Source of the DNA: Alphaproteobacteria bacterium | GTDB lineage: Bacteria > Pseudomonadota > Alphaproteobacteria > Paracaedibacterales > VGCI01 | Direction of reading: 5' to 3' | Length of the DNA: 64,000 nt | NCBI GenBank assembly: GCA_016870095.1 | Contig: VGCI01000003.1 | Coordinates: 78,607 to 142,606 of the forward strand | Part shown: one piece after another, positions 28,651 to 60,717 of the stretch | Numbering within the stretch: the stretch's first letter is position 1 | How the letters are laid out: the number at the start of each line of letters is the position of its first letter | Program-made: the position numbers and the translations under genes | The notes under the pieces: model-generated | Database searches by the model: none | What the model saw: only the letters and a program-made list of their open reading frames with translations | Told to the model about the DNA's origin: nothing

Positions 28651-28873
28651 GTTCACTTCCCGAATTTATGTCGGCACAACTATAAAAATATTATGGGCAC
28701 AAAAACTTTAATGAGAAGTGAATATTGGTAATATTCTAAGGATGAGAAAAAATTGTTTAAAGGGTTAAATTCATGATTTTTCCAAAATAATTAAAGAAAA
28801 AACCCATTCACTTGTTGCGCAAGACCTTAAATCCGTCTATAAAAAAGTCAGTGATTTTCCAAGGGGAGTATAG

Positions 28874-29464: not shown

Positions 29465-30147
29465 CGTATAGCGCTCAAGCCAAAAAGGATATTGCACAAG
29501 CCAAGCGAGATGAAAATCTCCTTTTTTTCAAACGTCTTTTAAAGAATCCCAAGGCTTTGGGAGCTGTTACACCCAGCTCGCTGGCTTTGGCTAATTTTAT
29601 TTGTCGTCATGTGGAATCTACCCCTGAAAGTTTTGTGGTTGAAATCGGGGCAGGGACGGGAAGATTCACTCGGGCGTTATTGCGCTATGGCGTCACCCCT
29701 ACGCAGATTTATGTTGTGGAAATGGACCCAGAGCTTTGCAAATTTTTAACCCAACATTTTCCCCAAGTGACCGTTATTAATGGAGATGCAAGAAATCTTT
29801 TGGATATTCTTCCGGCTCACATTATTGGAAAAGTGAGTACGGTCATTTCTGGCATTCCCCTTGTTAATTTGTCCGAAACCATTCAAGCCCATATTGCTGA
29901 TGCCTGTTTTGCTGTACTTGCCGAAGGTGGGCAAATGTTACAGTTTACTTACGGCCCTATTTCTCCTTTATCCAGTCGCAAACTGGGTTTGCATAAAAAG
30001 CGTTTAGGAAGCGTATTTTGGAATTTTCCGCCAGCAGTAATCTGGGCATATAAACGTGCAGAAATGCAAGAAGAAAAATCTCAAGTTTTCATTCGCCGAT
30101 TACGGAATTTGCGTCGCAAAATTTTGATTAAAGTGAAGCAGAGTTAA
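29461..30147 (+). CDS. Class I SAM-dependent methyltransferase, PmtA-like (COG3963-type phospholipid N-methyltransferase), copy 2
   Basis: The ATG overlaps the copy-1 stop (ATGA at 29461..29464). Motifs FFKRLLKNPKALGAVTPSS, VVEIGAGTGRFTRALL and NFPPAVIWAYKR. The ORF-track start at 29416 is an upstream extension. Confidence 0.72.
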   Translation: MTYSAQAKKDIAQAKRDENLLFFKRLLKNPKALGAVTPSSLALANFICRHVESTPESFVVEIGAGTGRFTRALLRYGVTPTQIYVVEMDPELCKFLTQHFPQVTVINGDARNLLDILPAHIIGKVSTVISGIPLVNLSETIQAHIADACFAVLAEGGQMLQFTYGPISPLSSRKLGLHKKRLGSVFWNFPPAVIWAYKRAEMQEEKSQVFIRRLRNLRRKILIKVKQS

Positions 30148-30319
30148 CCTATAAAAACAGGTTAAAGGCACTGAGTCGTATTTAATGAGCATATTTTTTC
30201 TCGTTTTAGCACAATCCGCGCCCCATTGGCGGTAAGCAAATCTCGTGCTAATGTCATATTAATTACAAGTTTTTAGAAGTTTATTGTTGAGTTATTAATG
30301 ACGCCATGAAAGGGAAGGA

Positions 30320-32302
30320 ATGAATTTATTTCATATTGCTGAAATGGCGCTCATTTCACCATTGGTTGGGTTTGTCATTGCCGGTCTTGGAAGTTTAAAT
30401 CCCCAAAGCTTTACGGAAGAAGGGTTAGACTTTGGAGATCGATTATTTCAAGTCGTTACTTGTACCTTAATGGGTATTTGTGTTTTGGCGTCTCTTATTT
30501 TGTTTCAACAAGTTGGGCTTGGGCACCTGGAGGCTTCAACATTGACGTTGCCCTGGATTCATACGGACCAATTTACTGTTTCGTGGGGCATTAAGCTTGA
30601 CGCATTAAGTGTCACGATGATGCTTATTGTTTCTCTTGTTTCTTTTCTTGTTCATATTTATTCCATCGGTTACATGAAAAACGATAATTGTATTCCTCGA
30701 TTTATGGCCTACCTTAGTTTTTTTACTTTTGCCATGTTGGCGCTTGTTACGGCTCCGAACCTGCTCCAGCTTTTTTTTGGTTGGGAAGGTGTAGGGCTCG
30801 CGTCTTATTTGCTCATTGGGTTTTGGTACGAAAAGCCTTCAGCAGGGGCGGCTGCTATAAAAGCTTTTGTAATGAATCGGATTGGAGATGTAGGGTTGGC
30901 TCTAGGGATATGTGCTATCTTTACTATATTCCAAACCATGGATTTTGAAATACTTTTTAAAGAATTAGCGACTTACTCCACCGGTTCTGCGGGTCGTCCT
31001 ATTTTTAACTATTTAGGGTTTCCTGTTGACGCCTTAAATTTGATTGGTGCTTTGCTCCTAATTGGTGCAATGGGGAAGTCGGCGCAGCTAGGGCTTCATA
31101 CGTGGTTGCCAGATGCTATGGAAGGACCTACGCCCGTATCTGCTTTGATTCATGCGGCAACAATGGTAACTGCAGGCGTTTTTTTACTTGTGAGAATGTC
31201 GCCCTTATATGAATTAACTCCTCTCATACGGGATTTTATCTGTATTATCGGAGCCTTAACGGCGTTCTTTGCGGCAGCTATAGCGGTTACTCAAAATGAT
31301 ATTAAACGCATCATTGCTTATTCGACATGCAGTCAATTAGGATATATGTTTTTTGCAGTGGGCGTTTCTGCCTATGGTGCGGCCATGTTCCACCTCGTAA
31401 CCCATGCTTTTTTTAAGGCTCTTCTCTTTTTAGGCTCAGGTGCTGTTATTCACGCTATGTCAGATGAACAAGACATTCGTCGCATGGGGGGAATTCGTGC
31501 TATGGTTCCTATTACCTATACAATGATGTGGGTGGGCAATCTGTCATTAGCGGGCATTCCCTTTTTTGCAGGTTATTATTCTAAAGACGCAATATTAGAA
31601 GCGGCCTATCTTAAAGGTACTGTTGTTGGTGAAATTGCTTTTGTTTTGGGACTTTTTGTGGCCATAATGACCGCATTTTATTCCTGGCGATTGTTGCTCC
31701 TTACATTTCATGGAACTCCCCGTGCGGATGACCGTGTCATGGCCCATGTGCATGAAGTGTCTCAATCCATGAAAATTCCATTATATATCCTAGCCTTGGG
31801 GGCGATGGTATCCGGCTATCTGGGGCAAGATTTATTTTTAAACACCGGGTTCTGGGGACATGCTATTCCTTCGGCAAGTTTACATCACGGCGGGGCAAAC
31901 TTGTTGTCGTATGTGGTGCGGTTTCTGCCCCTTGTATGTGCTATTATGGGAATTTCTATCGCTTACCTATTCTATTATCAAAATCAAATTATTCCTGATC
32001 GTTTAGCCCTAAAATGGCCTCGTTTATATAGTTTTTCTCTTAATAAAGGATTTGTAGACGAGGTTTATAATCGGTTGTTTGTGGCTCGGGCTCTAGCCTT
32101 GGGTTGGGTATTCTGGAAAAAAGGAGATGAAAAAATTATTGATCGCTATGGTCCGGATGGATTCACAACGGTCTCTATGTTTATTGCCCACCTTGCGGCC
32201 CGTTTGCAAACGGGATATGTTACCCATTATGCCTTTGCTATGTTGTTAGGTATTGTTGCTTTAACAACGTGGCTATTAATTTCAAAAGTTTATAACCTAT
32301 GA
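30320..32302 (+). CDS. nuoL: NADH-quinone oxidoreductase subunit L
   Basis: 660-aa polytopic antiporter-like subunit (WEGVGLASYLLIGFW, HAATMVTAGVFL). Followed by nuoM with an ATGA overlap. Confidence 0.95.
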   Translation: MNLFHIAEMALISPLVGFVIAGLGSLNPQSFTEEGLDFGDRLFQVVTCTLMGICVLASLILFQQVGLGHLEASTLTLPWIHTDQFTVSWGIKLDALSVTMMLIVSLVSFLVHIYSIGYMKNDNCIPRFMAYLSFFTFAMLALVTAPNLLQLFFGWEGVGLASYLLIGFWYEKPSAGAAAIKAFVMNRIGDVGLALGICAIFTIFQTMDFEILFKELATYSTGSAGRPIFNYLGFPVDALNLIGALLLIGAMGKSAQLGLHTWLPDAMEGPTPVSALIHAATMVTAGVFLLVRMSPLYELTPLIRDFICIIGALTAFFAAAIAVTQNDIKRIIAYSTCSQLGYMFFAVGVSAYGAAMFHLVTHAFFKALLFLGSGAVIHAMSDEQDIRRMGGIRAMVPITYTMMWVGNLSLAGIPFFAGYYSKDAILEAAYLKGTVVGEIAFVLGLFVAIMTAFYSWRLLLLTFHGTPRADDRVMAHVHEVSQSMKIPLYILALGAMVSGYLGQDLFLNTGFWGHAIPSASLHHGGANLLSYVVRFLPLVCAIMGISIAYLFYYQNQIIPDRLALKWPRLYSFSLNKGFVDEVYNRLFVARALALGWVFWKKGDEKIIDRYGPDGFTTVSMFIAHLAARLQTGYVTHYAFAMLLGIVALTTWLLISKVYNL

Positions 32303-33891
32303 ACAATCTTCCCCTCCTTTCCGCAATTATCTTTCTCCCCTTAGTTGGCAGTCTTTTTATTTTTGCTATGAAAGGGCAAGAGTCGACCATTGCAAGCAAT
32401 GCAAGAAATGTAGCCATTTGGACATCTTTTCTAACCTTTGCTTTGTCAATTATTTTATGGATAAATTTTGATGTGAGCCAAATATCATATCAATTTGTTG
32501 AAAAGACAAATTGGGTTAAGGATTTAGGTATTCGGTATCATTTAGGAATTGATGGTGTTTCCTTATTTTTTGTATTATTAACAACTTTTTTAACACCTTT
32601 ATGTATTTTAGCCAGTTGGGATTCTATCCAATTTCGTGTACGGGAATATATGATGGTATTTTTACTGCTAGAAACATTCATGATTGGCATGTTTTGTGCC
32701 CTAGATCTCGTCCTGTTCTATGTCTTCTTTGAAGGTGTGCTCATTCCCATGTTCTTAATTATTGGTATCTGGGGAGGGGAGCGTCGAATTTATTCTTGTT
32801 TTAAATTCTTTTTGTATACTTTTTTTGGCTCCGTCTTAATGTTAATAGCTATTTTATCTATCTATTACATTACGGGAAGCACAGACCTTCAAGTCGTCAT
32901 GGACTTCTCCTTTACATTGGCAGCGCAGAGATGGTTATGGTTGGCCTTTTTTGCCTCTTTTGCCGTCAAAATTCCTATGTGGCCTGTTCATACATGGTTG
33001 CCGGATGCTCACGTCGAGGCTCCAACGGCAGGATCTGTTATTTTAGCAGGAATCTTATTGAAAATGGGGGCTTATGGATTCTTAAGATTTTCGATTCCAT
33101 TGTTTCCAGGTGCAACAGTTGTTTTTACTCCATTGATCATGGTTCTCAGCATCATCGCCATTCTTTATGCATCTTTAATAGCTCTTGTCCAAACAGATAT
33201 GAAAAAATTGATAGCCTATTCTTCTATTGCTCATATGGGTTTTGTGACTTTAGGAATTTTTACACTCAACACCCAAGGGGTGACGGGGGCGATTATTCAA
33301 ATGCTGAGTCATGGTATTGTTGCCGGGGCTTTATTCTTGTGTGTAGGAGTGGTTTATGACCGACTTCATACCCGGGAAATTGATCGATACGGAGGGCTCG
33401 TGTCCCGTATGCCTTTTTATGCACTATTCTTTTTAATTTTTACCCTTGCGGCCATCGGATTGCCCGGAACAAGTGGATTTGTGGGAGAATTCTTGGTGCT
33501 TGTGGGTGCATTCCAAATGAATACGCTGGTTGCAACTCTTGCCTCAATCGGTATGGTTTTGGGGGCAAGTTATGCGTTGTGGTTATACCGAAGAGTCATT
33601 TTTGGAAAATTAGTTCACGCAGATTTAAAAACGATATTAGACCTCAATTTGCGGGAAGGCATAATTCTAGGCTCACTGGCAGTTTTGGTGTTGTGGTTGG
33701 GAATTTATCCGCAGCCATTCTTAAATATTATCAATCCCGCAGTTAAAGAGTTGGTTGAAAATCATAAGGCTTGGGTTCAAGAAGAAGCCTCAAATGTAAT
33801 AGAAAAAGCGAATGAAAAGGAAAGTTTGAGCCTTCATAAAATTGCGATGCCCAATCCTGATTCTTCGTTTGTGTGGGGAGCGTCTTTATGA
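32299..33891 (+). CDS. nuoM: NADH-quinone oxidoreductase subunit M
   Basis: 530 aa with WLPDAHVEAPTAGSVILAGILLKMG, typical of NuoM/ND4. Confidence 0.95.
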   Translation: MNNLPLLSAIIFLPLVGSLFIFAMKGQESTIASNARNVAIWTSFLTFALSIILWINFDVSQISYQFVEKTNWVKDLGIRYHLGIDGVSLFFVLLTTFLTPLCILASWDSIQFRVREYMMVFLLLETFMIGMFCALDLVLFYVFFEGVLIPMFLIIGIWGGERRIYSCFKFFLYTFFGSVLMLIAILSIYYITGSTDLQVVMDFSFTLAAQRWLWLAFFASFAVKIPMWPVHTWLPDAHVEAPTAGSVILAGILLKMGAYGFLRFSIPLFPGATVVFTPLIMVLSIIAILYASLIALVQTDMKKLIAYSSIAHMGFVTLGIFTLNTQGVTGAIIQMLSHGIVAGALFLCVGVVYDRLHTREIDRYGGLVSRMPFYALFFLIFTLAAIGLPGTSGFVGEFLVLVGAFQMNTLVATLASIGMVLGASYALWLYRRVIFGKLVHADLKTILDLNLREGIILGSLAVLVLWLGIYPQPFLNIINPAVKELVENHKAWVQEEASNVIEKANEKESLSLHKIAMPNPDSSFVWGASL

Positions 33892-35360
33892 ATTTGGCTT
33901 TTGAGGGTGTAGATTTAAACCTTATTTTTCCAGAACTTGTTCTATTGGGAGTGGCTTTTGTTCTTCTTGTGTTGGGTTTGTATAGGGGCGATTATGCTTT
34001 TAATCGCGTAATGCTATTATCCAAAATTGCTTTAGGGGCGGTTCTCGTTCTTGTTTGTGTGATGCCAGCAGAACGTGAAATTGGTTTCCAAGGGGCTTTT
34101 GTGAGTGATAGTTTTTCAATCTTGATGAAAGCCCTTATTATATCTTCAGCTCTTATTGTGTTAATGGTGAGCCGAAAGTCTCTAACTTCAGAAGATATTG
34201 CTCAATACGAATACCCAATCTTGATCCTGTTTGCTGTTTTGGGAATGATGGTTATGATTTCGGCAAACGACTTGATCAGTTTGTTTATGGGACTTGAATT
34301 ACAAAGTCTAAGTCTATACGTATTGACGACATTACGTCGAGACGATGCCAAAGCTTCAGAAGCTGGAATGAAGTATTTTGTTCTGGGAGCTCTGTCCACG
34401 AGTTTGCTGCTATATGGTTGTTCGTTAATTTATGGATACACAGGAACAACGAATTTTGATGTTATAGCTCATGTCTTGAAAGGAATTCATGATGTTCCTT
34501 TGTCTATAATGGTTGGGTTGGTTTTCCTGATGGCTGGGTTGGTTTTTAAAATTTCTGCGGTTCCTTTTCACATGTGGACCCCAGATGTGTATGAAGGATC
34601 GCCTATTTCCATTACAACATTTTTGGCCTCAGCTCCCAAAATTGCAGGTTTTGCTCTCATTACACGCGTTTTTATATCCCCTTTTTTGCATTTCGTGGGA
34701 CAATGGCAACTTATGCTGGGGGCGATCGCAATAGCCTCAATGATTTTAGGAGCATTTGCAGCTCTAACACAACGGAACATCAAACGTCTTTTGGCATATA
34801 GTTCTATTGGGAATATGGGATATGCGCTTATTGGCATCGTTGTGGGCACTGAAGAAGGGGTAACAGCAAGTACGTTATATATGCTGTTATATCTCATCAT
34901 GATTATTGGGGTGTTTGCGTGTCTTCTCAACATTACACGCCGAAGTCAGGAAACAAATAACATTCAAGATCTTAAAGGACTCGTTCGTTTTTATCCAGGA
35001 ACTTCATTTATTTTAAGTTTTCTCCTATTCTCAATGGCTGGCATTCCCCCTCTTGCAGGATTTCTAGGGAAATTGTACGTATTTAAAGCAGCCGTTGCCG
35101 CAAATTTTTACTTTTTGGCAATTGTTGGCGTTCTGACGAGCGTCGTTGCTGCGGCTTACTATCTTTGGATTATCAAAGCTATTCTTATGGATGCCCCAGA
35201 TTTGGACCGATGGGCGGAGCATTATCGTACTTATCGAAGGGAGCCAGCCATGACTTTTGTTTTGTTGGGGACGGTTGCAGGTCTTCTTTGGATCTTTATT
35301 TTCCCGAATCCTATTATTCGCATCACGAACGATGCTGTTGCTTCTCTATTTGATATGTAG
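33888..35360 (+). CDS. nuoN: NADH-quinone oxidoreductase subunit N
   Basis: About 490-aa polytopic protein (FHMWTPDVYEGSP). The ATG at 33888 overlaps the nuoM stop (ATGA). The ORF-track start at 33873 is five codons upstream. Confidence 0.93.
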   Translation: MNLAFEGVDLNLIFPELVLLGVAFVLLVLGLYRGDYAFNRVMLLSKIALGAVLVLVCVMPAEREIGFQGAFVSDSFSILMKALIISSALIVLMVSRKSLTSEDIAQYEYPILILFAVLGMMVMISANDLISLFMGLELQSLSLYVLTTLRRDDAKASEAGMKYFVLGALSTSLLLYGCSLIYGYTGTTNFDVIAHVLKGIHDVPLSIMVGLVFLMAGLVFKISAVPFHMWTPDVYEGSPISITTFLASAPKIAGFALITRVFISPFLHFVGQWQLMLGAIAIASMILGAFAALTQRNIKRLLAYSSIGNMGYALIGIVVGTEEGVTASTLYMLLYLIMIIGVFACLLNITRRSQETNNIQDLKGLVRFYPGTSFILSFLLFSMAGIPPLAGFLGKLYVFKAAVAANFYFLAIVGVLTSVVAAAYYLWIIKAILMDAPDLDRWAEHYRTYRREPAMTFVLLGTVAGLLWIFIFPNPIIRITNDAVASLFDM

Positions 35361-35368
35361 AGGATTTA

Positions 35369-36097
35369 TTGTTGAATTACATTCTTCATGAATATCCTGT
35401 TGTTGAAAGTACGAATGATGTTGCTAAGAACCTTTTAAAGGAAGGCGCAGGAGAAGGCACAGTTGTTCGAGCGGACCGCCAAACAGCGGGGCGAGGTCGA
35501 CGAGGACGTGAGTGGGTATCTAATTCCGGTAATTTATACTGTTCTTTTATCCTAAAGCCGCACTGTCCTTTGAGCCAAGTCAATCAACTTTCATTTGTTA
35601 TGGCTTTAGCCGTTGGCGAGACGATTTTATCTTTCCTATCCTTGCCCGAGAGTTTGTCTTATAAATGGCCAAATGACTTACTTTTAAATAAAGAAAAGGT
35701 TGGCGGGATATTGATTGAAACAGAGTCCAGTGGGGGAAAACAAGTTGAAAGTTGTGTGGTCGGTATTGGTGTGAATCTTCTATCAAGCCCTTCTCATATG
35801 GCTTATCCCGTGACATCTTTAAAACGGCATGCAAAAGTGACGCCAATTTTAGAGATTTTATTTTCTGAACTTTTGGATCAAATCAAAACTTTCTATCATA
35901 TGTGGAAACAAGACGGTTTCGAGCTTATTCGAGAAAAGTGGCTGCAAAGAGCTTATTGTCTTGGAGAAGATCTATCTATAGTTGTGGGAGAAAACAAAAT
36001 CCGCGGAAAGTTTATTGGATTAGATCCCAGCGGTGGGCTTCTTATTAAAAGAGAAGATAATAGCATTGAAACTCTATTGTCGGCTGAAATTTCATGA
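35369..36097 (+). CDS. birA: Biotin--[acetyl-CoA-carboxylase] ligase (no N-terminal repressor domain)
   Basis: ESTNDVAK near the N-terminus and QTAGRGRRGREW (the GRGRRGR biotin-binding loop). TTG start. Conserved position after nuoN. Confidence 0.87.
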   Translation: MLNYILHEYPVVESTNDVAKNLLKEGAGEGTVVRADRQTAGRGRRGREWVSNSGNLYCSFILKPHCPLSQVNQLSFVMALAVGETILSFLSLPESLSYKWPNDLLLNKEKVGGILIETESSGGKQVESCVVGIGVNLLSSPSHMAYPVTSLKRHAKVTPILEILFSELLDQIKTFYHMWKQDGFELIREKWLQRAYCLGEDLSIVVGENKIRGKFIGLDPSGGLLIKREDNSIETLLSAEIS

Positions 36098-45066: not shown

Positions 45067-48000
45067 ATGACTCCATTCGTTCATTTACGTGTTCATACCG
45101 CTTATTCCCTCGCAGAAGGGGCTATTAAGCTGAAAGATTTGGCCAAGCAGTGTCGCGAATATTCTATGCCTGCTGTGGCAATCACGGATACGGCTAATCT
45201 TTTTGGAGCTCTCGAGTTTTCCATGAGTTGCGCTGAAAATGGTATTCAACCTATTATTGGGTGCCAAATCCATTTGCGCCGATCTTCCCCATCTTCCCCC
45301 GGGAATCAAAAACCTATTGAGCCGGATCAACTTGTTTTGATTGCTCAAAATGAGGAGGGATATCGCAATCTTCTTCATTTGGTTAGTGATTCTTATTTAT
45401 CAGCGGCAAGTGGTGAATTACCTCAAATGACTCTTGAAGCTTTAAAAGAGCGAAGTGCGGGGTTAATAACTTTAACAGGGGGGCCAGCCGGTCCTATTGG
45501 TCGTTTGATTGCAGAAGGTCAACGAAGCGCTGCGGAAGAACTTCTTCTCACCTTAAAAGCCATTTTTCCCAATCATCTCTATGTTGAAATTATGCGACAT
45601 GGATTAGCAATTGAAGATCAAATTGAGCCTATACTGGTTGATTTAGCCTATCAACATGATCTTCCTTTGGTAGCGACCAATGAGGTTTTTTTTAAAGACC
45701 CCGATATGTATGAAGCGCACGACGCTCTTTTGTGTATTGCAGAAGGTAGATATTTGAATCAAGATGATCGCCGACGCGTAACGCCTCATCATTTTTTCAA
45801 GACTGCCCAAGAAATGATAGAGATATTTTCAGACTTGCCTGAAGCCATTCACAATACAGTGGTAATTGCAAAGCGCTGTTCCTATATGCCTATCCCGCGT
45901 CATCCTATTTTACCACCCTATCCGACGGAATCGGGGCGTTCTGAAGGTGAGGAGCTCCGCGATATGGCAGAAAAAGGCTTACACGGGCGCTTGGAGCGTC
46001 AAGTCTATGATTTGACAGATTCTGCTGAAACCAAAATCGAGAAGCGTCAAATTTACTTGGATCGCCTAAACTATGAAATCAATGTCATTGAGAAAATGGG
46101 ATTTCCCGGGTACTTCCTTGTCGTTGCAGATTTTATACAATGGGCAAAAAGTCAAGGTATACCTGTTGGTCCTGGTCGTGGGTCGGGTGCGGGCTCTTTG
46201 GTAGCGTGGGCTTTGACAATTACGGATATAGATCCCATTCGATTTGGATTATTGTTTGAGCGTTTCTTGAATCCAGAACGCGTTTCTATGCCTGACTTTG
46301 ATATCGATTTTTGCCAAGAACGTCGCGATGAAGTGATTACTTACGTTCGTCGCAAATATGGCGACGATCGTGTTGCTCACATTATCACTTTTGGAAAGAT
46401 GCAAGCCAAAATGGTTCTGCGAGACGTGGGACGTGTGCTCCAACTCCCCTATGGTCAGATTGACAGAATTTCTAAGCTTGTCCCCAACAATCCAGCCAAT
46501 CCAGTAACGCTAGAGCAAGCCCTGGAAATGGAACCTTTATTGCGAGAAGCTCGTGATACAGATCCCGCAGTTGCAACGATGATGGATATGGGCATGAAGC
46601 TGGAAGGTTTATATCGTCATGCTTCAACCCATGCTGCAGGCGTCGTGATCGGAGATCGTCCCTTAGCTGACTTGGTGCCGCTTTATAAAGATGAAGGATC
46701 TATATTGCCGGCAACTCAATTCAGCATGAAATATGTGGAATTAGCGGGTTTATTAAAATTCGACTTTTTGGGTTTAAAAACATTAACAATTATTGAAAAT
46801 TGTTGTCAGCGTCTGAAGACAAATGGAATTTCGATTGATATTGCTCAAATTCCCCTTGATGATCCTAAGACTTTTGAACTTCTTCAAAAGGTTGAAACAG
46901 TTGGTGTTTTCCAAGTTGAAGGTGCGGGCATGCGGGACGTGCTGCGCAAGCTTCGACCCGATCGCTTTGAAGACTTAATTGCTTTGGTCGCTCTTTATCG
47001 TCCAGGCCCTATGGATGATATCCCCCGATATCTGGCTTGTAAACATGGTGAAGAGAAAGTGACCTATCTTCACCCCCAATTGCAGTCCATACTGGAGCCA
47101 ACATATGGGGTTATGGTTTATCAAGAACAGGTTATGCAAATTGCTCAAGTTTTAGGTGGATATACATTGGGTGCCGCAGATCTATTGCGTCGAGCCATGG
47201 GAAAGAAAATTAAGTCAGAAATGAATGCCCAGCGTGCTCAGTTTGTTGAAGGGGCAATTAAAAATGGTTTGATACCTGATATTGCCAGTCAAATTTTTGA
47301 TCAAATGGCCAAGTTTGCCGGATATGGTTTTAACAAATCCCACTCTGCCCCTTATGCTCTATTGACTTATCAAACCGCCTATTTAAAAGCGAACCATCCT
47401 CTGGAATTTTTTGCAGCATCCATGACATATGATGTGAATAATACCGATAAACTAAATGTATTTCGTCAAGATATGGACCGATTAAAAATTGCTCTACTGC
47501 CCCCAGATATGAACGCTTCAGAAGTTTCGTTTTGTGTTGAAGGCAATGGCATTCGCTATGCATTAGCGGCTATTAAGGGTGTTGGTGAAGCGGGAATGAA
47601 AATAGTTCGACACGATCGTCAACTTCACGGACCTTTTAAAAGTTTGCTAGAATTTGCCCAGCGAATCGGCACGTGTGGAGCCAGTAGCGCGTTAAACAAG
47701 CGTCAATTGGAAAATCTTGTTTCCGCGGGAGCGTTCGATGGGTTAAATGCCAATCGCAAGCAAACCCATGGTGCAATTGAGAGCATGTTGAGACAGGCGG
47801 CACTTTCAGCTCAAGAAAAACAGAGCCAACAACATAGTTTGTTTGGATTTTCGGCATCTCAAAACCATCAAACTCTTTTGCTTCCTCCCATGAATGATTG
47901 GGGATCTCTTGAAAAATTACAGAATGAGTTTGACGCTCTCGGATTTTTCCTCTCCGCTCATCCTTTGGATATTTATGGATCTTCTCTGGCACGTCTCGGG

Positions 48001-48540
48001 GTGACGTCTAGCGAAACTGTAAAGGAAATGGGAGATGGGGCCACAGTAAAGTTGGCAGGAATTGTATTGGTCAAGCAAGAGCGAACTTCCAAAACCGGTC
48101 AAAAATTTGCTTTTGTAAAACTGTCTGATGCCCAAGGGGTTTTTGAAGTTGCCGTATTTTCAGAAGTCTACAGTCGCAGCCGGGATCTTTTAGAGCCAGG
48201 AAAGCCTTTGCTGGTGAGTGCAATTTTAAAGCAAGAATCGGAAGGTCCGGGAGGTGAGAGAAACTTTCGCTTAACAGGCCAGGGCGTGCAACTTTTAGAT
48301 GAAGCGATGCAATCTTTGACAAAAATGATTAGGGTGCGCGTGAATGAAACGGCAAAAGCCGATGATTTACGTCAAATATTTAAAAGTGCTCCTGCCGGTA
48401 ATGCCCGTGTGAGTATTGAAGTGATTTTTACCTCGACGCCGACCATTCAAATATTGTTGCCTGATAGTTACCACATCCATGCAGAAACACGCTCTCAGCT
48501 TTTGGGAGTGCCAGGCATTATAGGGATTGAGGATTTATAA
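45067..48540 (+). CDS. dnaE: DNA polymerase III subunit alpha
   Basis: 1157 aa. N-terminal PHP domain (FVHLRVHTAYSLAEGA), polymerase core (GRGSGAGSLVAWALTITDIDP, PDFDIDF) and a C-terminal OB fold. Confidence 0.97.
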   Translation: MTPFVHLRVHTAYSLAEGAIKLKDLAKQCREYSMPAVAITDTANLFGALEFSMSCAENGIQPIIGCQIHLRRSSPSSPGNQKPIEPDQLVLIAQNEEGYRNLLHLVSDSYLSAASGELPQMTLEALKERSAGLITLTGGPAGPIGRLIAEGQRSAAEELLLTLKAIFPNHLYVEIMRHGLAIEDQIEPILVDLAYQHDLPLVATNEVFFKDPDMYEAHDALLCIAEGRYLNQDDRRRVTPHHFFKTAQEMIEIFSDLPEAIHNTVVIAKRCSYMPIPRHPILPPYPTESGRSEGEELRDMAEKGLHGRLERQVYDLTDSAETKIEKRQIYLDRLNYEINVIEKMGFPGYFLVVADFIQWAKSQGIPVGPGRGSGAGSLVAWALTITDIDPIRFGLLFERFLNPERVSMPDFDIDFCQERRDEVITYVRRKYGDDRVAHIITFGKMQAKMVLRDVGRVLQLPYGQIDRISKLVPNNPANPVTLEQALEMEPLLREARDTDPAVATMMDMGMKLEGLYRHASTHAAGVVIGDRPLADLVPLYKDEGSILPATQFSMKYVELAGLLKFDFLGLKTLTIIENCCQRLKTNGISIDIAQIPLDDPKTFELLQKVETVGVFQVEGAGMRDVLRKLRPDRFEDLIALVALYRPGPMDDIPRYLACKHGEEKVTYLHPQLQSILEPTYGVMVYQEQVMQIAQVLGGYTLGAADLLRRAMGKKIKSEMNAQRAQFVEGAIKNGLIPDIASQIFDQMAKFAGYGFNKSHSAPYALLTYQTAYLKANHPLEFFAASMTYDVNNTDKLNVFRQDMDRLKIALLPPDMNASEVSFCVEGNGIRYALAAIKGVGEAGMKIVRHDRQLHGPFKSLLEFAQRIGTCGASSALNKRQLENLVSAGAFDGLNANRKQTHGAIESMLRQAALSAQEKQSQQHSLFGFSASQNHQTLLLPPMNDWGSLEKLQNEFDALGFFLSAHPLDIYGSSLARLGVTSSETVKEMGDGATVKLAGIVLVKQERTSKTGQKFAFVKLSDAQGVFEVAVFSEVYSRSRDLLEPGKPLLVSAILKQESEGPGGERNFRLTGQGVQLLDEAMQSLTKMIRVRVNETAKADDLRQIFKSAPAGNARVSIEVIFTSTPTIQILLPDSYHIHAETRSQLLGVPGIIGIEDL

Positions 48541-48544
48541 ATAT

Positions 48545-48570
48545 AAAAAACCCCTCTCGAAAGAGAGGGG
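48545..48570 (-). terminator. Rho-independent terminator of the WCA-protein gene
   Basis: Stem CCCCTCTC (48551..48558), loop GAAA, stem GAGAGGGG (48563..48570). On the minus strand it is followed by a T6 run (A-run 48545..48550 on plus). On the plus strand the trailing sequence CTCATTT is only weakly U-rich, so a role in dnaE termination is uncertain. Confidence 0.75.
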
Positions 48571-48597
48571 CTCATTTAATCTATAAAATTTTTATTT

Positions 48598-49827
48598 TTA
48601 TTTCCAATCATCATCATCAGTTTTAGGGGTTTCTTTTGATTCGATCTTTCCTATAATAGCACCCCTCCTTTGAGACAGGGCTTTAGATAATACGCTTTGC
48701 ACTGTATTAGAATTATCGCCTTGATGTGTCTCTTTACTGTCGGGATGAGGCACGGTATTATCTACTTTCTTAAGCACTTTTCCACCTTGAATTTGAGCTA
48801 ACAGGTTCCCACGAGGGGTAGGTTGAGTTAAAGGTTGCGAGGTAGCAGAATTTTTATCACTCGCGGGCGGTGGGGGGGCTGCAGGTATATCAGATGCCGT
48901 TGAGGGGGCATTGTTGGTCATGCTTTTTGCAGGAAGCTGAGTCGTTCTGAGTTTCTTTGCTTGGATCTGATCCAATAATGGATTGGGTGCCCGTGTTTCT
49001 TCCACCGGTGAGACAGGATCGGTGGAATGTTCAGTGGATGAAGAAGCAGGTATTGACTCATTGAGGGCTGTATTAGGAGGATTGTTTGGTGTTCGATGTT
49101 GCCCCAATTTGGGGGTAGAAGCATCACTTCCAAGGGCGGTTGATGAATGACCTGGAGCTGCGCGTACAAACCCTCCGTCTTTACCGGCAGGAGATAATGA
49201 CTTAGAATCTGAAGACGCTTCTACCGCATTAGACAGACCTAATCGCTCCTTTTCTTTGGTAGTTAGCACATTGAGAAGCTGCTTTTCTTTATCACTCAGC
49301 TTCGTTGGGTCGATACCCGCAGGCACCAAATTGGATGTTGGGACAACACTTCGTGAAGTGGGTGTCATTTCACAATTTTTCATCTGTTTCGCAACTAAAT
49401 CTGCTTTATCCGTCAAAGTTTTGCTTTTTTTCTGGTAGTCATTTAAATACTTTTTCCCACGGGAGTCCGTTGCTTTTTCAAACCGTGTAATATTCTCTTG
49501 GTTATCTTTAATTGCAGTCTCATAACCCATTTTTTCGTCTTCCAATATCTTTTGTAAATTTGCTTTGTTTGTTGGGTTTAAATTCTTACAAAATGCAAGA
49601 AGAGCATCTTTAATTTTTGTGTTATCGCAGTTTGCGGCACAATCATTCACATTTTTTTGAAAATCTTTAGAAGATCGATTTGCCAGCACTGTTTTTCCAC
49701 ATTTTAGCTTGCAAGTTGCTACATTCCACGCAGCTTCTGTTTTTTGTGTGCTTAAACATGTAAATGTTAAAGTTCCTAAAACTAAGCTTAAAATCGAAAT
49801 TGTATTGCGCATAGTTACTTTTTCCAT
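48598..49827 (-). CDS. Exported eukaryote-like actin nucleation-promoting-factor candidate: signal peptide, twin-CX3C domain, poly-Pro, 2x WH2, C helix and acidic/Trp tail
   Basis: ORF 48598..49845; in-frame Met at residues 1, 4, 7 and 12. I prefer Met7 (49827), which has AGGA 8 nt upstream. Residue numbers are those of the 415-aa track ORF. Signal: ISILSLVLGTLTFTCLSTQKTEA. WH2-1: NPLLDQIQAKKLRTT (aa 288-302). PAAPPPPA: aa 321-328. WH2-2: GNLLAQIQGGKVLKKVD (aa 346-362). C-like helix: VQSVLSKALSQRRGAII. Terminus: TDDDDWK. Confidence 0.7.
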   Translation of the reverse strand: MEKVTMRNTISILSLVLGTLTFTCLSTQKTEAAWNVATCKLKCGKTVLANRSSKDFQKNVNDCAANCDNTKIKDALLAFCKNLNPTNKANLQKILEDEKMGYETAIKDNQENITRFEKATDSRGKKYLNDYQKKSKTLTDKADLVAKQMKNCEMTPTSRSVVPTSNLVPAGIDPTKLSDKEKQLLNVLTTKEKERLGLSNAVEASSDSKSLSPAGKDGGFVRAAPGHSSTALGSDASTPKLGQHRTPNNPPNTALNESIPASSSTEHSTDPVSPVEETRAPNPLLDQIQAKKLRTTQLPAKSMTNNAPSTASDIPAAPPPPASDKNSATSQPLTQPTPRGNLLAQIQGGKVLKKVDNTVPHPDSKETHQGDNSNTVQSVLSKALSQRRGAIIGKIESKETPKTDDDDWK

Positions 49828-50012
49828 TGTTTTCATCCTTATCATCTATTATGTCGCCTATAAATTATTATGAGCTAAGAGAATTAAAAAAATCTTAACT
49901 ATTTTAAATCTCTATTTTTTGGATATTTCATAAGGTTCTGAAAGGTATTCAATTCGCAAATAAACTTTTTCAAGTTTAGGAGCTGTGCCTGTTTGGAGAG
50001 CAACTTATTTAT

Positions 50013-50038
50013 AAAAAAAACCCCTCCGAAGGGAGGGG
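50013..50038 (-). terminator. Rho-independent terminator of the second WH2-protein gene
   Basis: Stem CCCCTCC (50021..50027), loop GAAG, stem GGAGGGG (50032..50038), followed on the minus strand by a T8 run (50013..50020). Near-identical design to the 48545..48570 terminator. Confidence 0.75.
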
Positions 50039-50063
50039 TATCTTACATAATTTAAATCTTAGT

Positions 50064-51005
50064 TTAATTACCGTTAGCGGCTGCGGCAGCAGCGGCTTCT
50101 CTTTTTGCTTTCATGGCGAGCGCAGCTTTCTGTATTTCGTTGATACTTGACCCTTGATCGGTGTTCGTTGCTGGTTTAGGTGTACCATTTGCAGATGGAG
50201 TGGGTAGAGAACCCAATCTGCGAGTAGGTGAAGTAGTATCGGGCGCTCCTACAGGATTTGCTGCAACTGGAGAAGTTGTTGCCTTAACATCTGTCTCATT
50301 TTTTTTAAGTTCTCTACCTTTTCGAATGTCAGCTAACAAATCTGCAGGTTGAGTTTTGTTTGCTGGAGAAGGTGCTGTTGCAGGTACTGCTGCTTTTGCA
50401 GAAGCTGGAGGTGGTGGCGGTGGCGGAGCAGGCGGCACATTAGATGGTGCAGTATTCACATCCGCTGGTGACGGAGCTGGTTCAGGCCTAAACATTGGTG
50501 TTGGGACTGGAGGTACAGCTGGAGCTCCGGCCGGAGCTGTTATTGCGGGAGTGGCAACATCCAATGCAACAGGGCATTTCTTCATTTGATCCGCAACGGC
50601 TTTAATCTTAGTGTCTAATAATTTATCTTTACTCGTATATTCTTTTGTGAGTTTTTTCCCTCTATAGTCTGATGCATTTTTAAATTGATCTATTTTACTT
50701 TGATTTGCTTTTTTTTCTTCTTCATAACCGAGTTTTTGTTTACTTAAATCATCATTTAATTTTTTCTTATCTACCAACTTATCGCAGTTAGCGAGAAGAA
50801 CATCCTTAATGATCGCATTATCACAATTTCTAGCACACTCATTCAGAGTTTTCGTCTTGTTTCCTACCACGTACTTATTACATCTTACTTTGCACTCTGC
50901 AGGGCTCCAAGCCACTGTATTCTGAGTGCCTAGACTCATAATTGTTAAAGTTCCCATAATTAAGCTAAGTGTGGAAACTCTGTTTTTGGAAATTAATTTT
51001 TGCAT
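50064..51005 (-). CDS. Exported WH2 / poly-proline protein, paralog of 48598..49827 lacking the acidic/Trp tail
   Basis: Track ORF 50064..51044. The ATG at 51005 (MQKLISKNRVSTLSLIMGTL...) has AAAGGA upstream. It shares the twin-CX3C domain with its neighbour. PPAPPPPPPP at aa 204-213 and WH2 ADLLADIRKGRELKKNE at aa 233-249, numbered on the 326-aa ORF. It ends ...EIQKAALAMKAKREAAAAAAANGN. Confidence 0.7.
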   Translation of the reverse strand: MQKLISKNRVSTLSLIMGTLTIMSLGTQNTVAWSPAECKVRCNKYVVGNKTKTLNECARNCDNAIIKDVLLANCDKLVDKKKLNDDLSKQKLGYEEEKKANQSKIDQFKNASDYRGKKLTKEYTSKDKLLDTKIKAVADQMKKCPVALDVATPAITAPAGAPAVPPVPTPMFRPEPAPSPADVNTAPSNVPPAPPPPPPPASAKAAVPATAPSPANKTQPADLLADIRKGRELKKNETDVKATTSPVAANPVGAPDTTSPTRRLGSLPTPSANGTPKPATNTDQGSSINEIQKAALAMKAKREAAAAAAANGN

Positions 51006-51221
51006 TTTTTTATCCTTTAAATTATATAAACAATACAAATTCATTGTAATTATTAAATAATTAAAAAAATATTAAAAATATATATTAAAAAAATTTTTGA
51101 AATTAACAATTATTAGAATGTCTATAAATTAATATTATTTTAAGATTTTTCATGGAACATAGAATTATAGGTTAGATTTACTAAAAGTTTACAAACTCTC
51201 AAAATAGTTTGGCAAAATAAA

Positions 51222-52754
51222 ATGCAAAAAATTCTGAACCAGCTCGAAGAAAAACGCAAAGCTTGTTATTTAGGGGGCGGCCAGGAGCGTATTGATCGTC
51301 AACATGGTAAGGGAAAATTGACCGCACGCGAACGTTTAGATATTCTTTTAGATGAGGGATCGTTTGAAGAGTGGGGGCTTTTTGTTGAGCATCGATCTCA
51401 AGATTTTGGGTTGGATAAACTAACCATTCCGGGAGACGGAGTGGTGACTGGTTATGGCACTATTAATGGCAGGCTGGTGTTCGTATTTTCCCAAGACTTT
51501 ACCGTTTTTGGTGGCTCATTAGGCGAAGCCCACGCCGAAAAAATTGCCAAAATTATGGACAAGGCCATACAAGTGGGAGCTCCCCTTATTGGGTTAAACG
51601 ATTCTGGAGGGGCGCGCATTCAAGAAGGTGTCGATTCTCTTGCAGGTTATGCAGAAGTTTTTCAACGAAATGTTTTGGCCTCTGGCGTGATCCCCCAACT
51701 ATCTTTAATTATGGGGCCGTGCGCAGGGGGTGCTGTCTATTCACCCGCGATGACAGATTTTATTTTTATGGTAAAACAGACAGCCTACATGTTTGTGACA
51801 GGTCCCGATGTTGTCAAAACTGTAACTAACGAGACCGTTAGCGCAGAAGATTTAGGAGGTGCTAAAGTTCATACGACCCAATCCGGCGTTGCCGATTTGG
51901 CGCCTCCAAATGATATAGATGCTCTTATGCAAGCGCGTCGATTGATCGATTTTTTGCCGCTTTCAAATCGGGAATCTCCGCCCCTTCGTAAAACGTCAGA
52001 TGCGCCAAATCGTCTCGATCCGGCACTGGATACCTTGATTCCCCCTAATCCAAATCTTCCCTATGACATGAGGGAGCTCATCCATAGCGTGCTTGATGAT
52101 GGAGATTTCTTTGAAATGCAGCCTGAATTTGCGCCCAATATTCTCATTGGATTTGGTCGCATGGATGGTCGATCGGTAGGTATTGTTGCTAATCAGCCTA
52201 TGGTTTTAGCAGGCTGTTTGGATATTAATGCATCTCGAAAGGCGGCTCGATTCGTTCGGTTTTGCGATTGTTTTAACATTCCCTTGCTAACCTTCGTCGA
52301 TGTGCCGGGATTCTTACCCGGTATTGAACAGGAGCAGGGCGGTATCATTAAACACGGGGCAAAATTATTATTTGCTTTTGCTGAAGCAACGGTTCCTAAA
52401 GTCACACTTATTACACGGAAGGCTTACGGGGGGGCTTATGATGTTATGAGCTCAAAGCATATTCGCGCAGATGTCAATTTCGCGTGGCCAACGTCAGAAA
52501 TTGCCGTTATGGGCCCTAAGGGTGCTGTAGAGATTATTTTTCGTGGGGATTTAAGTTCGCCTGAAAGCATGGCGTGCCGCGAGGAAGAATACCGAGATAA
52601 GTTTGCAAATCCCTTGATTGCAGCCCATCGTGGATTTATTGATGATATTATTCAACCACGAGAAACACGATTGCGAATGTGCCGTTCCTTAGACATGTTG
52701 GCGAATAAAACACTTGTCAATCCGTCAAAGAAGCACGACAATATCCCATTATGA
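51222..52754 (+). CDS. pccB: Propionyl-CoA carboxylase beta chain (carboxyltransferase)
   Basis: 510 aa. N-terminus [33 protein letters not shown] is typical of PccB and the methylmalonyl-CoA carboxyltransferase 12S subunit. Partnered with pccA downstream, and mce is in the same window. Confidence 0.88.
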
Positions 52755-58602: not shown

Positions 58603-59765
58603 AAAAATACAAGGTTTTCTTGTCTGCAGGTGAACCATCAGGCGATTTTTTAGGGAGTCATCTTATGAGTTCCCTGAAATGGCAGTTCAATAACAATATT
58701 GAATTTGTTGGCCTGGGAGGTTCCTTAATGGAGGAAGAAGGAATGTCTTCTCTATTCCCCATTGATGAATTATCCATCATGGGCCTTGCGGAAATTATTC
58801 CTCATATTTGGCGGATTCGTAAACGCATCTTCCAAACAGTTGATGCGATTGAGAAAATCAATCCTGATATTATCGTAACGATTGACTCTCCGGGGTTTAA
58901 TTTTCGTGTTGGAAAAATACTCAAGAAGAGAGGTAAAGCCATCCCACTTGTACACTATGTTGCCCCTTCTGTTTGGGCATGGCGTCCAGGTAGAGCAAAA
59001 TCAATTGCAAAATTTCTCAATCATTTACTAGTTTTGTTTCCTTTTGAACCTCGCTATTTCCTAAAAGAAGGGTTGCCGACCCAATTTGTGGGGCATCCCG
59101 TGGTTGAGCTGGGATTAATAAATACGGCGCACTCTTCATTTCGACAGCGACATAATATTCCCCTATCCGCTTCAATTTTGACTGTTCTTCCCGGAAGTCG
59201 CCGAGGGGAAATTTCTCGACTTTTACCCATCTTTCAAAAAACGATTTTAAAGCTTCAACAAAATGACCCTAATTTACATGTTGTAATTCCAACTTTGCCT
59301 CACTTAGTGAATCAAATTCACCAGCAATTGACTGTGCCAGCAACAATAGTCACGACACAATTGGAAAAGATTTCGGCTTTACAGGAAAGTCGAGGTGCAT
59401 TAGCTGCGAGTGGTACAGTTTCCTTAGAATTAGGGGCAGCAGGTTTACCAAGTGTTATTGCTTATAAAATAAATCCATTTACGCATTTTGTGATAAATTT
59501 CATGATAAAAGTAAAGTATGCGTGTCTACTTAACATACTGATGAATAAAGAAATTGTTCCGGAACGATTGCAGCAAAAATGCACATCTGAAAATTTAGCA
59601 TTAGCTGTCAAAGAAATTTTATATAACGACAAAGTTCGTGAATCAATGAAAATAGAAATGAAAAGAGCCTTGAGTATGCTTAAAGCTCCTTCAAAAGATT
59701 TGTCCCCAAGTCAGTGTGCCGCTCAATATATAGCCCAAGTCTTAAACATTAATGGTCCTAATTAA
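58599..59765 (+). CDS. lpxB: Lipid-A-disaccharide synthase
   Basis: 388 aa with GEPSGDFLGSHLM N-terminus, IDSPGFNFRV and ASGTVSLELG motifs. Confidence 0.93.
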   Translation: MKKYKVFLSAGEPSGDFLGSHLMSSLKWQFNNNIEFVGLGGSLMEEEGMSSLFPIDELSIMGLAEIIPHIWRIRKRIFQTVDAIEKINPDIIVTIDSPGFNFRVGKILKKRGKAIPLVHYVAPSVWAWRPGRAKSIAKFLNHLLVLFPFEPRYFLKEGLPTQFVGHPVVELGLINTAHSSFRQRHNIPLSASILTVLPGSRRGEISRLLPIFQKTILKLQQNDPNLHVVIPTLPHLVNQIHQQLTVPATIVTTQLEKISALQESRGALAASGTVSLELGAAGLPSVIAYKINPFTHFVINFMIKVKYACLLNILMNKEIVPERLQQKCTSENLALAVKEILYNDKVRESMKIEMKRALSMLKAPSKDLSPSQCAAQYIAQVLNINGPN

Positions 59766-60717
59766 AGATGCCGACTCCAGCTTTGCAGAGGAGCTGAACA
59801 TAGCCAACAAATCCACGATTCATGCGTCCTTGAATGCACCCCCCTCTCGTGAGATGACCTTCTAGAACTTGATCAAATATCATCTGAATATAAGAAAAAT
59901 TTTGGTTTTTGTTGTAAAGATTTATGGCTAACGACCACGCACGAGACCAGACTTCACGAGCTGCAGGGCAGAGGCTTATTTCTGAATCCATTCGCGCAAA
60001 ATGATTATTGAGATAGGTCAAAATTGTGTCAATATCAACAGGCCTTTCTAAATATTTATAGGCAGCAAAAAATTTATCGTTGTTTAACACAAATTCACAC
60101 ATTTGTTGACCCACTTGAGCTAAAGTCAAATTTGGATTGTCAATACTATACAAGTTTCCAATGTCTAAAAGATGGCGGATGTTGTTGCCACCTCCAAATA
60201 CATAATCATCTAAAATATGAACGTCAGAATCGGCGTAAATTTGACTTAAATAATTGAATATTCGCATAAAATTTTCAAGAATAGGTCTTTGTTTTCCCGC
60301 TGCATATTCCCGTGATAACTTATTGGTTCGCAAGATATCTACGCTATGTCCCGGACTATCTTCAAAATTATTGTAACGTACCTGACGATGTTGAATTAAG
60401 GATACATGATCGTGAGTGCTTGTTGCAGAATGGGCCATATCCCCTCTTCTGTTTTCTTCAACCAAAAGTTTGCGAATGTAGTCTAGCGAGGCTTTCTCTT
60501 GTGGGGCAATCACTTGAGGTGGGGGGGCCGTTCTTCGAGTATCATAAAAACCTTCCCGATTGATTTCTGCTTTCAGGCCATCTCTATACTCCTTTAAGGT
60601 TAATCCTAACGAGGCGGTAAGAGCGGTATCTAAGTCATTATCTTGCTCTTGCGCGAAACTAATGGAGATAGTTCCCACAAGAATAGAAATAAAAAAAGCC
60701 CGAATAAAATTTTCCAC
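59758..60717 (-). CDS. Hypothetical exported protein; no family recognised
   Basis: 319-aa ORF with a GTG start and an N-terminal signal (FFISILVGTISISFA/QE). Its 3' end overlaps the convergent lpxB by 8 nt. Confidence 0.5.
   Translation of the reverse strand: MENFIRAFFISILVGTISISFAQEQDNDLDTALTASLGLTLKEYRDGLKAEINREGFYDTRRTAPPPQVIAPQEKASLDYIRKLLVEENRRGDMAHSATSTHDHVSLIQHRQVRYNNFEDSPGHSVDILRTNKLSREYAAGKQRPILENFMRIFNYLSQIYADSDVHILDDYVFGGGNNIRHLLDIGNLYSIDNPNLTLAQVGQQMCEFVLNNDKFFAAYKYLERPVDIDTILTYLNNHFARMDSEISLCPAAREVWSRAWSLAINLYNKNQNFSYIQMIFDQVLEGHLTRGGCIQGRMNRGFVGYVQLLCKAGVGIFN

Follow-up and report, generated by a model that had tools for sequence, protein, structure and literature searches.

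A proline-rich WH2 gene without an acidic tail, beside its tailed paralog in a Finniella-like alphaproteobacterium: a candidate exported actin handler

The 64,000-nt stretch of the alphaproteobacterial contig VGCI01000003.1 analysed here (the window, in whose coordinates all positions are given) carries on its minus strand a gene, the target (50064..51005), whose product joins a Sec-type signal peptide and a cysteine-rich N-terminal domain (N-domain) to an arm with a poly-proline run and a single WH2 motif. On balance, we consider it somewhat probable that the target is a functional gene for an exported actin handler, built from a proline-rich domain (PRD) and WH2, which does not activate Arp2/3 and which is the derived copy of a tandem duplication. 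It sits between pccB (51222..52754, plus strand) and a paralogous neighbour (open frame 48598..49845, minus strand), which in turn abuts dnaE (45067..48540, plus strand). The neighbour (48598..49827, minus strand) encodes a signal peptide, the N-domain, a degenerate WH2, PPPP, a second WH2 (WH2-2), a C motif (VLSKALSQRRGAI) and an acidic/Trp end (TDDDDWK and stop). An earlier note on this DNA had described the two as paralogs with the same signal peptide and Cys domain, and BLASTP agrees, giving 43% identity over 176 aa (E 2e-38) that span both elements; the N-domains are 43-47% identical.

Architecture of the target

The open reading frame was confirmed at 50064..51044 on the minus strand (326 aa). 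Its true start is probably the internal methionine M14 at 51005, because an AAAGGAT ribosome-binding site is kept in three lineages, because the upstream ATG is cut off by a stop in a syntenic contig of a diverged strain (L007), and because orthologues are called from MQK/MRL. From M14 to the stop the coding sequence measures 313 aa, with the open frame reaching 51044 upstream, and the cysteines below (C38, C42, C57, C61, C74, C144) are numbered from M14. An intrinsic-terminator-like hairpin with a T-run lies 3' of the target (50020..50039, minus strand) and resembles the 3' end of the neighbour, which has a terminator-like hairpin of its own (48548..48573, minus strand); the target is predicted to be its own transcription unit, separate from that of the neighbour. 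What the earlier note had observed as a whole, namely the frame, the paralogy and the motif content, is confirmed, while its interpretation is supported in part only.

The predicted signal peptide (MQKLISKNRVSTLSLIMGTLTIMSLGTQNTVA, cleaved before W; 50910..51005, minus strand) was recognised by inspection and from family alignments. It shows n-, h- and c-regions and an AxA-type signal peptidase I site, and the family consensus for this end reads ...AEA before (A/S)W. The Trp directly after the predicted cleavage site (W33, 50907..50909) is conserved in most family members. The N-domain that follows (50574..50909, minus strand; ~110 aa) is modelled by AlphaFold2 (AF2) with pLDDT 83-97 for aa 31-145 as a head of short helices with twin CX3C, then a long helical hairpin, antiparallel and with C74-C144 closing it. 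C38, C42, C57 and C61 are invariant across the family, and the two cysteines at the hairpin base, C74 and C144, are both present in 10-11 members and both absent in seven, with no informative exception, which is the pattern expected of a disulfide pair. Taken together with the AxA-type site, the cysteine pattern points to real export and oxidative folding of the target. A lipoprotein was considered and rejected, as there is no conserved lipobox Cys and the TFTC of the neighbour is kept neither in the target nor in the family.

The fold of the N-domain itself is uninformative, since Foldseek, queried with the AF2 model, retrieved only generic helical hairpins from the PDB (best E 0.98). Small Tim proteins are twin-CX3C helix-loop-helix proteins, and the target resembles them in having two CX3C motifs 14 residues apart (C38-x3-C42...C57-x3-C61) on helices that could be stapled by two disulfides; this is a structural analogy only, as there is no sequence or fold match and the context and the attached hairpin differ. 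In one relative (L018 966..3011), situated at a different locus adjoining a uvrA-like gene, a fusion joins this signal peptide and twin-CX3C N-domain to ~450 aa with kinase-like motifs (HGDLHLNN...IDTG). Because the N-domain is joined there to a kinase-like region instead of an actin-directed arm, we regard it as a modular carrier or anchor.

Beyond the N-domain extends a disordered Pro/Ala-rich arm (50346..50573, minus strand). It contains PPAPPPPPPP, an FH1-like run and candidate profilin ligand (aa 204-213; 50406..50435, minus strand), which lies exactly where it had been placed before and is two prolines longer in L007. Twenty residues downstream of this run stands the WH2 motif ADLLADIRKGRELKKNE (aa 234-250; 50295..50345, minus strand), with a short helix at 223-228 in the AF2 model; the earlier claim of one WH2 holds for the motif, although the coordinates had been 3 nt off. 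About 50 disordered residues and a terminal helix complete the protein. With at least one WH2 the target has the V element of WASP-type VCA factors (WH2, connector and acidic elements), and its order of a Pro-rich region followed by a G-actin-binding WH2/GAB element is that of Ena/VASP-like mimics.

The Pfam WH2 model (PF02205) scores the target motif at 15.4-15.5 bits (E 0.014) and the neighbour at 27 bits, and it matches 10 of the 18 family members; nothing except WH2 rises above noise when target and neighbour are compared with Pfam. The motif aligns in register with ..DLLAxIxxGxxLKK.. of the family. Compared with all PDB sequences, the C-terminal half of the target matched two entries only, Spire-D (3mn7) and N-WASP (3m3n), both of them WH2 constructs from actin co-crystals; IRKG(K/R)ELK is identical between the target WH2 and Spire-D 3mn7. 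A WH2-core pattern, partly derived from the target and neighbour sequences themselves, picked out only these two genes in a six-frame translation of the window and none in 200 shuffles. The target WH2 appears weak alone and strong in context.

The protein closes with an Ala-rich helix, SSINEIQKAALAMKAKREAAAAAAANGN, directly before the stop (50067..50150, minus strand), which AF2 predicts at 285-311 with pLDDT about 66 and which is weakly C-motif-like, with no acidic/Trp element after it. The C-terminal 169 aa contain 12 D+E and 16 K+R and no W or Y, the last 25 aa contain 2 D+E, 4 K+R and 0 W, and no acidic/Trp relic was found in any frame past the stop, in line with the earlier description of an end without an acidic stretch or Trp. 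Lacking the A element, a C-terminal acidic cluster that includes a conserved Trp or Phe, the target falls outside the VCA nucleation-promoting factors and, without this contact, would not efficiently activate Arp2/3 itself.

The C element is a different matter. Connectors of the family follow the pattern hydrophobic-x-x-A-hydrophobic-x-x-R-R-x-A-hydrophobic, and a profile of eight of them scores AMKAKREA of the target at -3.5 bits, within the shuffle range. When the final 45 residues were aligned by Smith-Waterman to 11 C-A tails of the family, they exceeded composition-preserving shuffles for only two of them (summed p 0.075), P0017 (p 0.0015; ..QKAMKARRGA..) and L019 (p 0.03; ..MQKALKEAMAKRNA..), and MAFFT puts SPTRRLGSLP, not the terminal helix, below the family RRGA. 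Since the hidden Markov model of the family C motif missed the terminal helix, we do not file the target as "V-C". Of the C-helix-like end read earlier, a helix is thus predicted, but the family profile does not recognise a C motif in it; and of the proposed pairing of V-C-without-A with V-V-C-A, the missing A is borne out, while the C of the target is not statistically recognisable. A capping-protein-interaction (CPI) motif suspected by eye near SPTRRLGSLP misfits the LxHxTxxRPK consensus and was dropped.

A family with tailed arms and a lineage-specific duplication

An exhaustive profile search with the N-domain among 1.84 billion proteins yielded 18 representatives (E <= 1e-3). All are unannotated, or called "hypothetical protein" of "Alphaproteobacteria bacterium" metagenome-assembled genomes (MAGs), and the family is confined to Finniella-like Paracaedibacteraceae. 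This search replaced a full-length, word-indexed one that had returned two orthologues only and had missed the neighbour owing to poly-proline words; a GTDB scan with patterns from two sequences likewise gave nothing, and with a broader alignment three MAG loci. No significant NCBIfam family was found, the neighbour having 0 matches and the target a 13-bit match to VapD (E 0.084) that we reject as noise; Pfam matches of the neighbour to DUF1151 and MYG1 were below threshold and were disregarded. The family was not found described in literature searched for WH2 in Holosporales and for VCA/WH2 in endosymbionts or amoebae (the Arp2/3 wording matched poorly), and a 2025 Holosporales review makes no mention of WH2- or Arp2/3-type effectors.

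DnaE of the window places the organism: it is 76-93% identical to that of other MAGs and 62-63% to that of Ca. Paracaedibacter and Ca. Odyssella, and in the GTDB scan it was 81% identical to a protein on a contig titled "MAG: Candidatus Finniella inopinata". The Finniella species described so far inhabit the cytoplasm of cercozoans and ciliates, and the characterised Holosporales are all obligately host-associated (PMC11909080).

Most full-length members consist of the signal peptide, the N-domain, a Pro-rich region, one to three WH2s, a helix of the C type (..LxxA[LM]xxRRxA..) and, at the end, acidic residues with Trp or Phe, as in TDDDDWK, ETENEWR, EITDDGW, ETDEDWNTH, NFEQNWDD, DFEQDWTDND, DAEDDEWK and DFEQDWGEKDEKK. 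Read from its motifs, this usual arm is built like a WASP-type Arp2/3 activator. Because family members end in such acidic/Trp or Phe tails, the tail-lessness of the target is derived. The target belongs to the family by its four invariant cysteines after the AxA site and by its position between pccB and dnaE. The same slot, between pccB (or an adjacent two-transmembrane (2TM) gene) and dnaE, holds a single family gene in L009, L011, L012/L013, L014, L017 and L019, L018 and L025 being the exceptions to this synteny. The single-copy gene of L019 (3090..4625; MAG Ca. Finniella inopinata) encodes three WH2s, two of them within near-identical ~50-aa tandem repeats, then the C motif, and ends in NFEQNWDD before the stop. 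The gene of L025 (3001..4155, P0015), near rpmG/rpsI/rplM, ends directly after a C-like helix (..AEKLEKRRELEGNQ and stop); it lacks both a clear WH2 and an acidic/Trp tail and so adds a further tail-less form.

In a neighbour-joining tree of N-domains, the target with its orthologue P0002 is sister to the neighbour with P0003, and the four form one clade with 100% bootstrap among single-copy relatives; the pair thus goes back to a tandem duplication specific to this lineage. When aligned, the 3' ends of target and neighbour (stop, AT-rich spacer and hairpin) score 23.5 (shuffles: -2.7 +/- 3.9), which suggests that the whole gene was copied together with its terminator and that the tail was lost later.

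A second case was found in L023 (614..4808 of CAYRJJ010000037.1, assembly GCA_964424515.1), where three tandem paralogs arose by a duplication independent of that in the window. They lie beyond pccB, on the side where the conserved layout has dnaE, and the first two (g1 and g2) form a clade of their own with 100% bootstrap. The copy that adjoins pccB, g1, has a Pro-rich arm without WH2, C and A, the next, g2, has PPPPPPPPP, WH2, C and DFEQDWGEKDEKK, and g3 is a short third copy. Hence a tail-less copy before a tailed copy arose twice, in the same order.

Selection, recombination and a poly-C tract

Rates were estimated by the Nei-Gojobori method for the window versus L007. For the N-domain of the target dS is 1.02 and dN/dS 0.16, and for its C-terminal half dS is 0.045 and dN/dS 0.74 (6 synonymous and 12 non-synonymous changes), with overall ranges of 0.03-0.045 and 0.74-0.82 for this half. 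The corresponding values for the neighbour are 1.27 and 0.10 (N-domain) and 1.13 and 0.38 (C-terminal part). At least for the N-domain, purifying selection has acted on the target over a long time. The window, L007 and L008 all keep its frame uninterrupted, the sole indel being in frame, and the protein is identical on 15 metagenome contigs from several samples.

These data bear on the idea that the target is a degenerating duplicate, whose arm lost the acidic/Trp tail and perhaps the C motif and is now drifting, the gene persisting because the loss is recent. The absent tail and the statistically unrecognisable C motif would fit it, as would the C-terminal dN/dS of 0.74-0.82 and a recent coalescence, by which intactness has been tested over little time. 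We nevertheless judge it improbable: the N-domain of this very copy shows a dN/dS of 0.16 at a dS of about 1, the frame is intact in three lineages and the protein uniform on all 15 contigs, neither the WH2 core nor the poly-Pro run has changed, and a diverged lineage has acquired the arm. Of the decaying pseudogene that the earlier note had named as a possible outcome there is accordingly no obvious sign. The variable frameshifts it had listed as a mark of decay do occur at this locus, but they lie in the neighbour (5/8 assemblies), the target being intact.

The contrast between the two halves of the target coincides with a tract at 49840..50560, where the nucleotide identity to L007 is 92-100% inside a backbone of 72-88%. 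The tract takes in the C-terminal half of the target, its terminator and everything between the two genes as far as the start of the neighbour, and most simply reads as a tail-less arm that lineages exchanged by recombination not long ago. It may instead stem from a chimeric metagenome assembly, but the L007 allele has two additional Pro codons and private substitutions, and for this reason it is not simply the strain of the window or of L008. The exchange also limits what the orthologues can tell. The ending KREAAAAAAANGN before the stop is shared with P0001 (95%) and P0002 (82%), but because the C-terminal half was recently recombined (dS 0.03-0.045 vs ~1.0 for the N-domain), tail-lessness in P0001/P0002 is not independent evidence of its age. 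The comparison of orthologues proposed in the earlier note, which looked for an acidic tail lost by truncation, therefore gave a mixed answer: the two orthologues are also tail-less, yet not independently so, while the usual state of the family is tailed and that of the target derived.

A different kind of variation affects the neighbour. Its PPPP codons contain a C7 homopolymer (48872..48878, minus strand), which is intact in the window and in L003. In L001, L002, L004, L006 and L015 the tract is C8, and the resulting frameshift yields a product that ends in ...PAAPPTARE, without WH2-2, C and A, so that the neighbour is frameshifted in five of the eight assemblies covering the tract. The C7 and C8 alleles are otherwise about 100% identical over the flanking 2.9 kb. 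The allele of L016 (1003..2190) keeps C7 and has an in-frame 60-nt deletion that takes the N-terminal half of WH2-2 (..DIPAAPPAPPSDQIQGGKVLKKVD..) and leaves the C motif and the acidic/Trp tail. No C or G run of at least 7 was found in the other family genes examined, and the target has no run of 6 or more. In the varying length of its homopolymer the neighbour, and not the target, resembles a phase-variable contingency gene, and the poly-C tract looks like a phase-variable on/off switch of the putative Arp2/3-activating tail of the neighbour.

A tail-less copy next to an apparently switched, tailed one might also be a competitor or regulator of its VCA paralog, sharing a docking site of the N-domain and competing through WH2 for actin, and so act as a dominant-negative or buffer of Arp2/3 assembly. 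The similarity of the paralogous N-domains, the adjacency of the two genes in separate transcription units, the twofold origin of tail-less and tailed sets, and the recombination tract that joins the arm of the target with the promoter region of the neighbour are all compatible with such a role. A pure antagonist would, however, be left without anything to antagonise wherever the neighbour is off by C8 and the target remains invariant, and we think this role quite unlikely. The same observation qualifies the division of labour within the pair that had been proposed earlier: it fits tail-less and tailed sets that have arisen twice, but strict cooperation is complicated by a partner that is truncated in most sampled populations.

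Mechanism, known actin mimics and the rest of the window

According to the reading that we favour, a PRD-WH2 actin handler, Sec would carry the target across the inner membrane, and its N-domain would be oxidised to a disulfide-stapled helical module that serves as carrier or anchor for host-directed C-terminal arms. The ancestral arm (Pro-rich region, one to three WH2s, C and acidic/Trp) would have mimicked WASP-type Arp2/3 activators and have been encoded by one gene between pccB and dnaE. After a tandem duplication that included the terminator, the pccB-side copy, the target, would later have shed the acidic/Trp element and kept the FH1-like poly-proline and one well-conserved WH2. The target may reach host cytosolic actin at the bacterial surface or after release; its WH2 would there bind G-actin or barbed ends and its poly-proline capture profilin-actin, and the protein could feed, tether or elongate filaments, or buffer monomers. 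In the WASP family, PRD and WH2 segments tethered to a surface can bind profilin-actin and accelerate the growth of barbed ends without involving CA (the connector and acidic elements).

Several observations weigh against this reading. The Sec signal and the disulfides place the target in the periplasm, and as to a route through the outer membrane we found no autotransporter barrel, no lipobox and no secretion genes within the window. The Pfam score of the target WH2 is under the gathering threshold of 23.1 bits. The C-terminal dN/dS of about 0.7-0.8, which rests on few substitutions, is indistinguishable from neutrality, and with a recent recombinational origin of the arm in L007 the tail-less arm need not have been kept for long. 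Finally, the only sources for this bacterium are metagenome assemblies of environmental origin (JGI and SRA/Logan samples).

As an alternative, the target might be a periplasmic or envelope protein with a Pro/Ala spacer in the style of TonB/TolA, its WH2-like stretch being coincidental and not host-directed. Pro/Ala-rich linkers are common in envelope proteins, and a Sec signal with a disulfide-bonded domain, with no device for outer-membrane translocation found, would fit one. We nevertheless regard this as highly improbable, because relatives carry the full WH2 + C + acidic/Trp series at the extreme C-terminus, tails without a known periplasmic role, because the target WH2 aligns with those of its relatives and with the Spire-D/N-WASP WH2 constructs, and because the lineage is host-associated (DnaE placement; PMC11909080).

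By analogy, the closest functional class of the target would be the PRD-WH2 bacterial actin effectors. BimA of Burkholderia pseudomallei is an Ena/VASP-like polymerase with PRD and WH2 but without CA, whereas BimA of B. thailandensis uses Arp2/3 (PMC9569871). Like the target, a putative surface protein, BimA is a Sec-dependent surface protein with a Pro-rich region followed by WH2, and its split into types with and without CA mirrors that between neighbour and target. BimA is in turn a trimeric autotransporter with a C-terminal barrel and a coiled coil, its device for oligomerisation and anchoring; the target lacks a barrel or autotransporter domain, and its own module is N-terminal, small and disulfide-stapled. 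The BimA types also occur in different species, while both forms stand side by side in one genome here, and the target has only one WH2. Nor is the target an autotransporter like Sca2.

RickA of Rickettsia, likewise an alphaproteobacterial intracellular lineage, resembles the neighbour and most family members in its C-terminal Pro-rich region, WH2, C and acidic/Trp. It differs from the target in having no Sec signal (PMC10002696) and an unrelated helical-repeat N-terminus, and the acidic/Trp element that defines RickA activity is missing in the target. Among eukaryotic factors, the WH2 core of the target, LLADIRKGRELKK, closely matches those of Spire-D (LMESIRKGKELKQ) and N-WASP (LLDQIRQGIQLKK), with a Pro-rich region upstream as in the WASP family; unlike WASP, N-WASP, WAVE and Spire, the target lacks an acidic/Trp tail, GBD, WH1 and SHD and has a bacterial signal peptide and Cys domain. 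Chlamydia TarP and Legionella MavH/RavH share with the target one or few WH2-like elements and act by oligomerisation or clustering, not through an A motif (PMC9569871, PMC10381072, PMC13481308), but they are T3SS or T4SS (type III or type IV secretion system) substrates without a Sec signal or disulfide domain and are related in the WH2 motif only.

These proteins raise the alternative that the target goes beyond a cofactor for monomer delivery and is itself an Arp2/3-independent nucleator or elongator, TarP/MavH- or Ena/VASP-like, by oligomerisation of its N-domain or dense packing on a surface. TarP nucleates through WH2 and oligomerisation, and the order of PRD then WH2 resembles the working end of BimA and Ena/VASP, oligomerisation being what makes BimA and TarP nucleate (PMC9569871). 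For MavH, an effector whose WH2-like domain is likewise single, actin polymerisation requires clustering on a surface (PMC10381072). AF2 models the N-domain as a long coiled-coil-like hairpin, and where the VCA neighbour is frameshifted, as in most of the populations sampled, the target might have to do without a partner. The AF2 model is monomeric, though, and its fold matches generic hairpins; moreover the target has a single WH2 and no recognisable F-actin-binding element. We take a nucleator of this kind to be unlikely.

As a broader scenario, tentative and in its entirety rather doubtful, the family could be a Sec-dependent actin-assembly kit, in which the disulfide-stapled N-domain carries interchangeable VCA, PRD-WH2 or kinase-like arms. 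An activator would have been split twice into a constitutive, tail-less "feeder/elongator" and a VCA "nucleator", the latter poly-C-switched in this species, and the tail-less arm would have spread by recombination.

Bacterial mimics of actin regulators (ActA, RickA, BimA, Sca2, TarP, VopL) have taught much about nucleation and come nearly all from animal pathogens; the present family would extend actin mimicry to protist symbionts of the Holosporales type. Actin-based trafficking has been seen in Holospora, according to work cited in the Holosporales review (PMC11909080). New here are the N-terminal module, its reliance on Sec, and the juxtaposition of tailed and tail-less paralogs, which arose twice independently; in addition the neighbour appears to be poly-C-switchable and the arm to recombine. 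The tandem pair would be a natural experiment on the PRD-WH2 part of a nucleation-promoting factor without CA, and the Sec signal with the disulfide domain poses the question of the route to the host cytosol. The apparent poly-C switch of the neighbour and the recombining arm of the target suggest that selection at the interface with the host continues.

The remainder of the window is ordinary chromosomal housekeeping, with a few genes of separate interest. A 415-aa product with a signal-like N-terminus (27409..28656, minus strand) matches Pfam Ntox11 (novel toxin 11; E 1.5e-9) and is a possible secreted effector of the polymorphic-toxin type. Another (24972..25883, plus strand; 303 aa), also with a signal-like N-terminus, has a Walker-A-like GGPGASKST and no Pfam match at E <= 1e-3, and may be secreted, as a P-loop kinase or a zeta-toxin-like protein. 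The products of 8407..9177 (plus strand) and 59758..60717 (minus strand) have hydrophobic N-termini and match no Pfam family; the latter frame is conserved as a 319-aa gene in the synteny with L001. Lastly, an AT skew of -0.15 to -0.22 at 30000..36000 coincides with three Proton_antipo_M genes (nuoL/M/N-like) and is due to membrane-protein composition.

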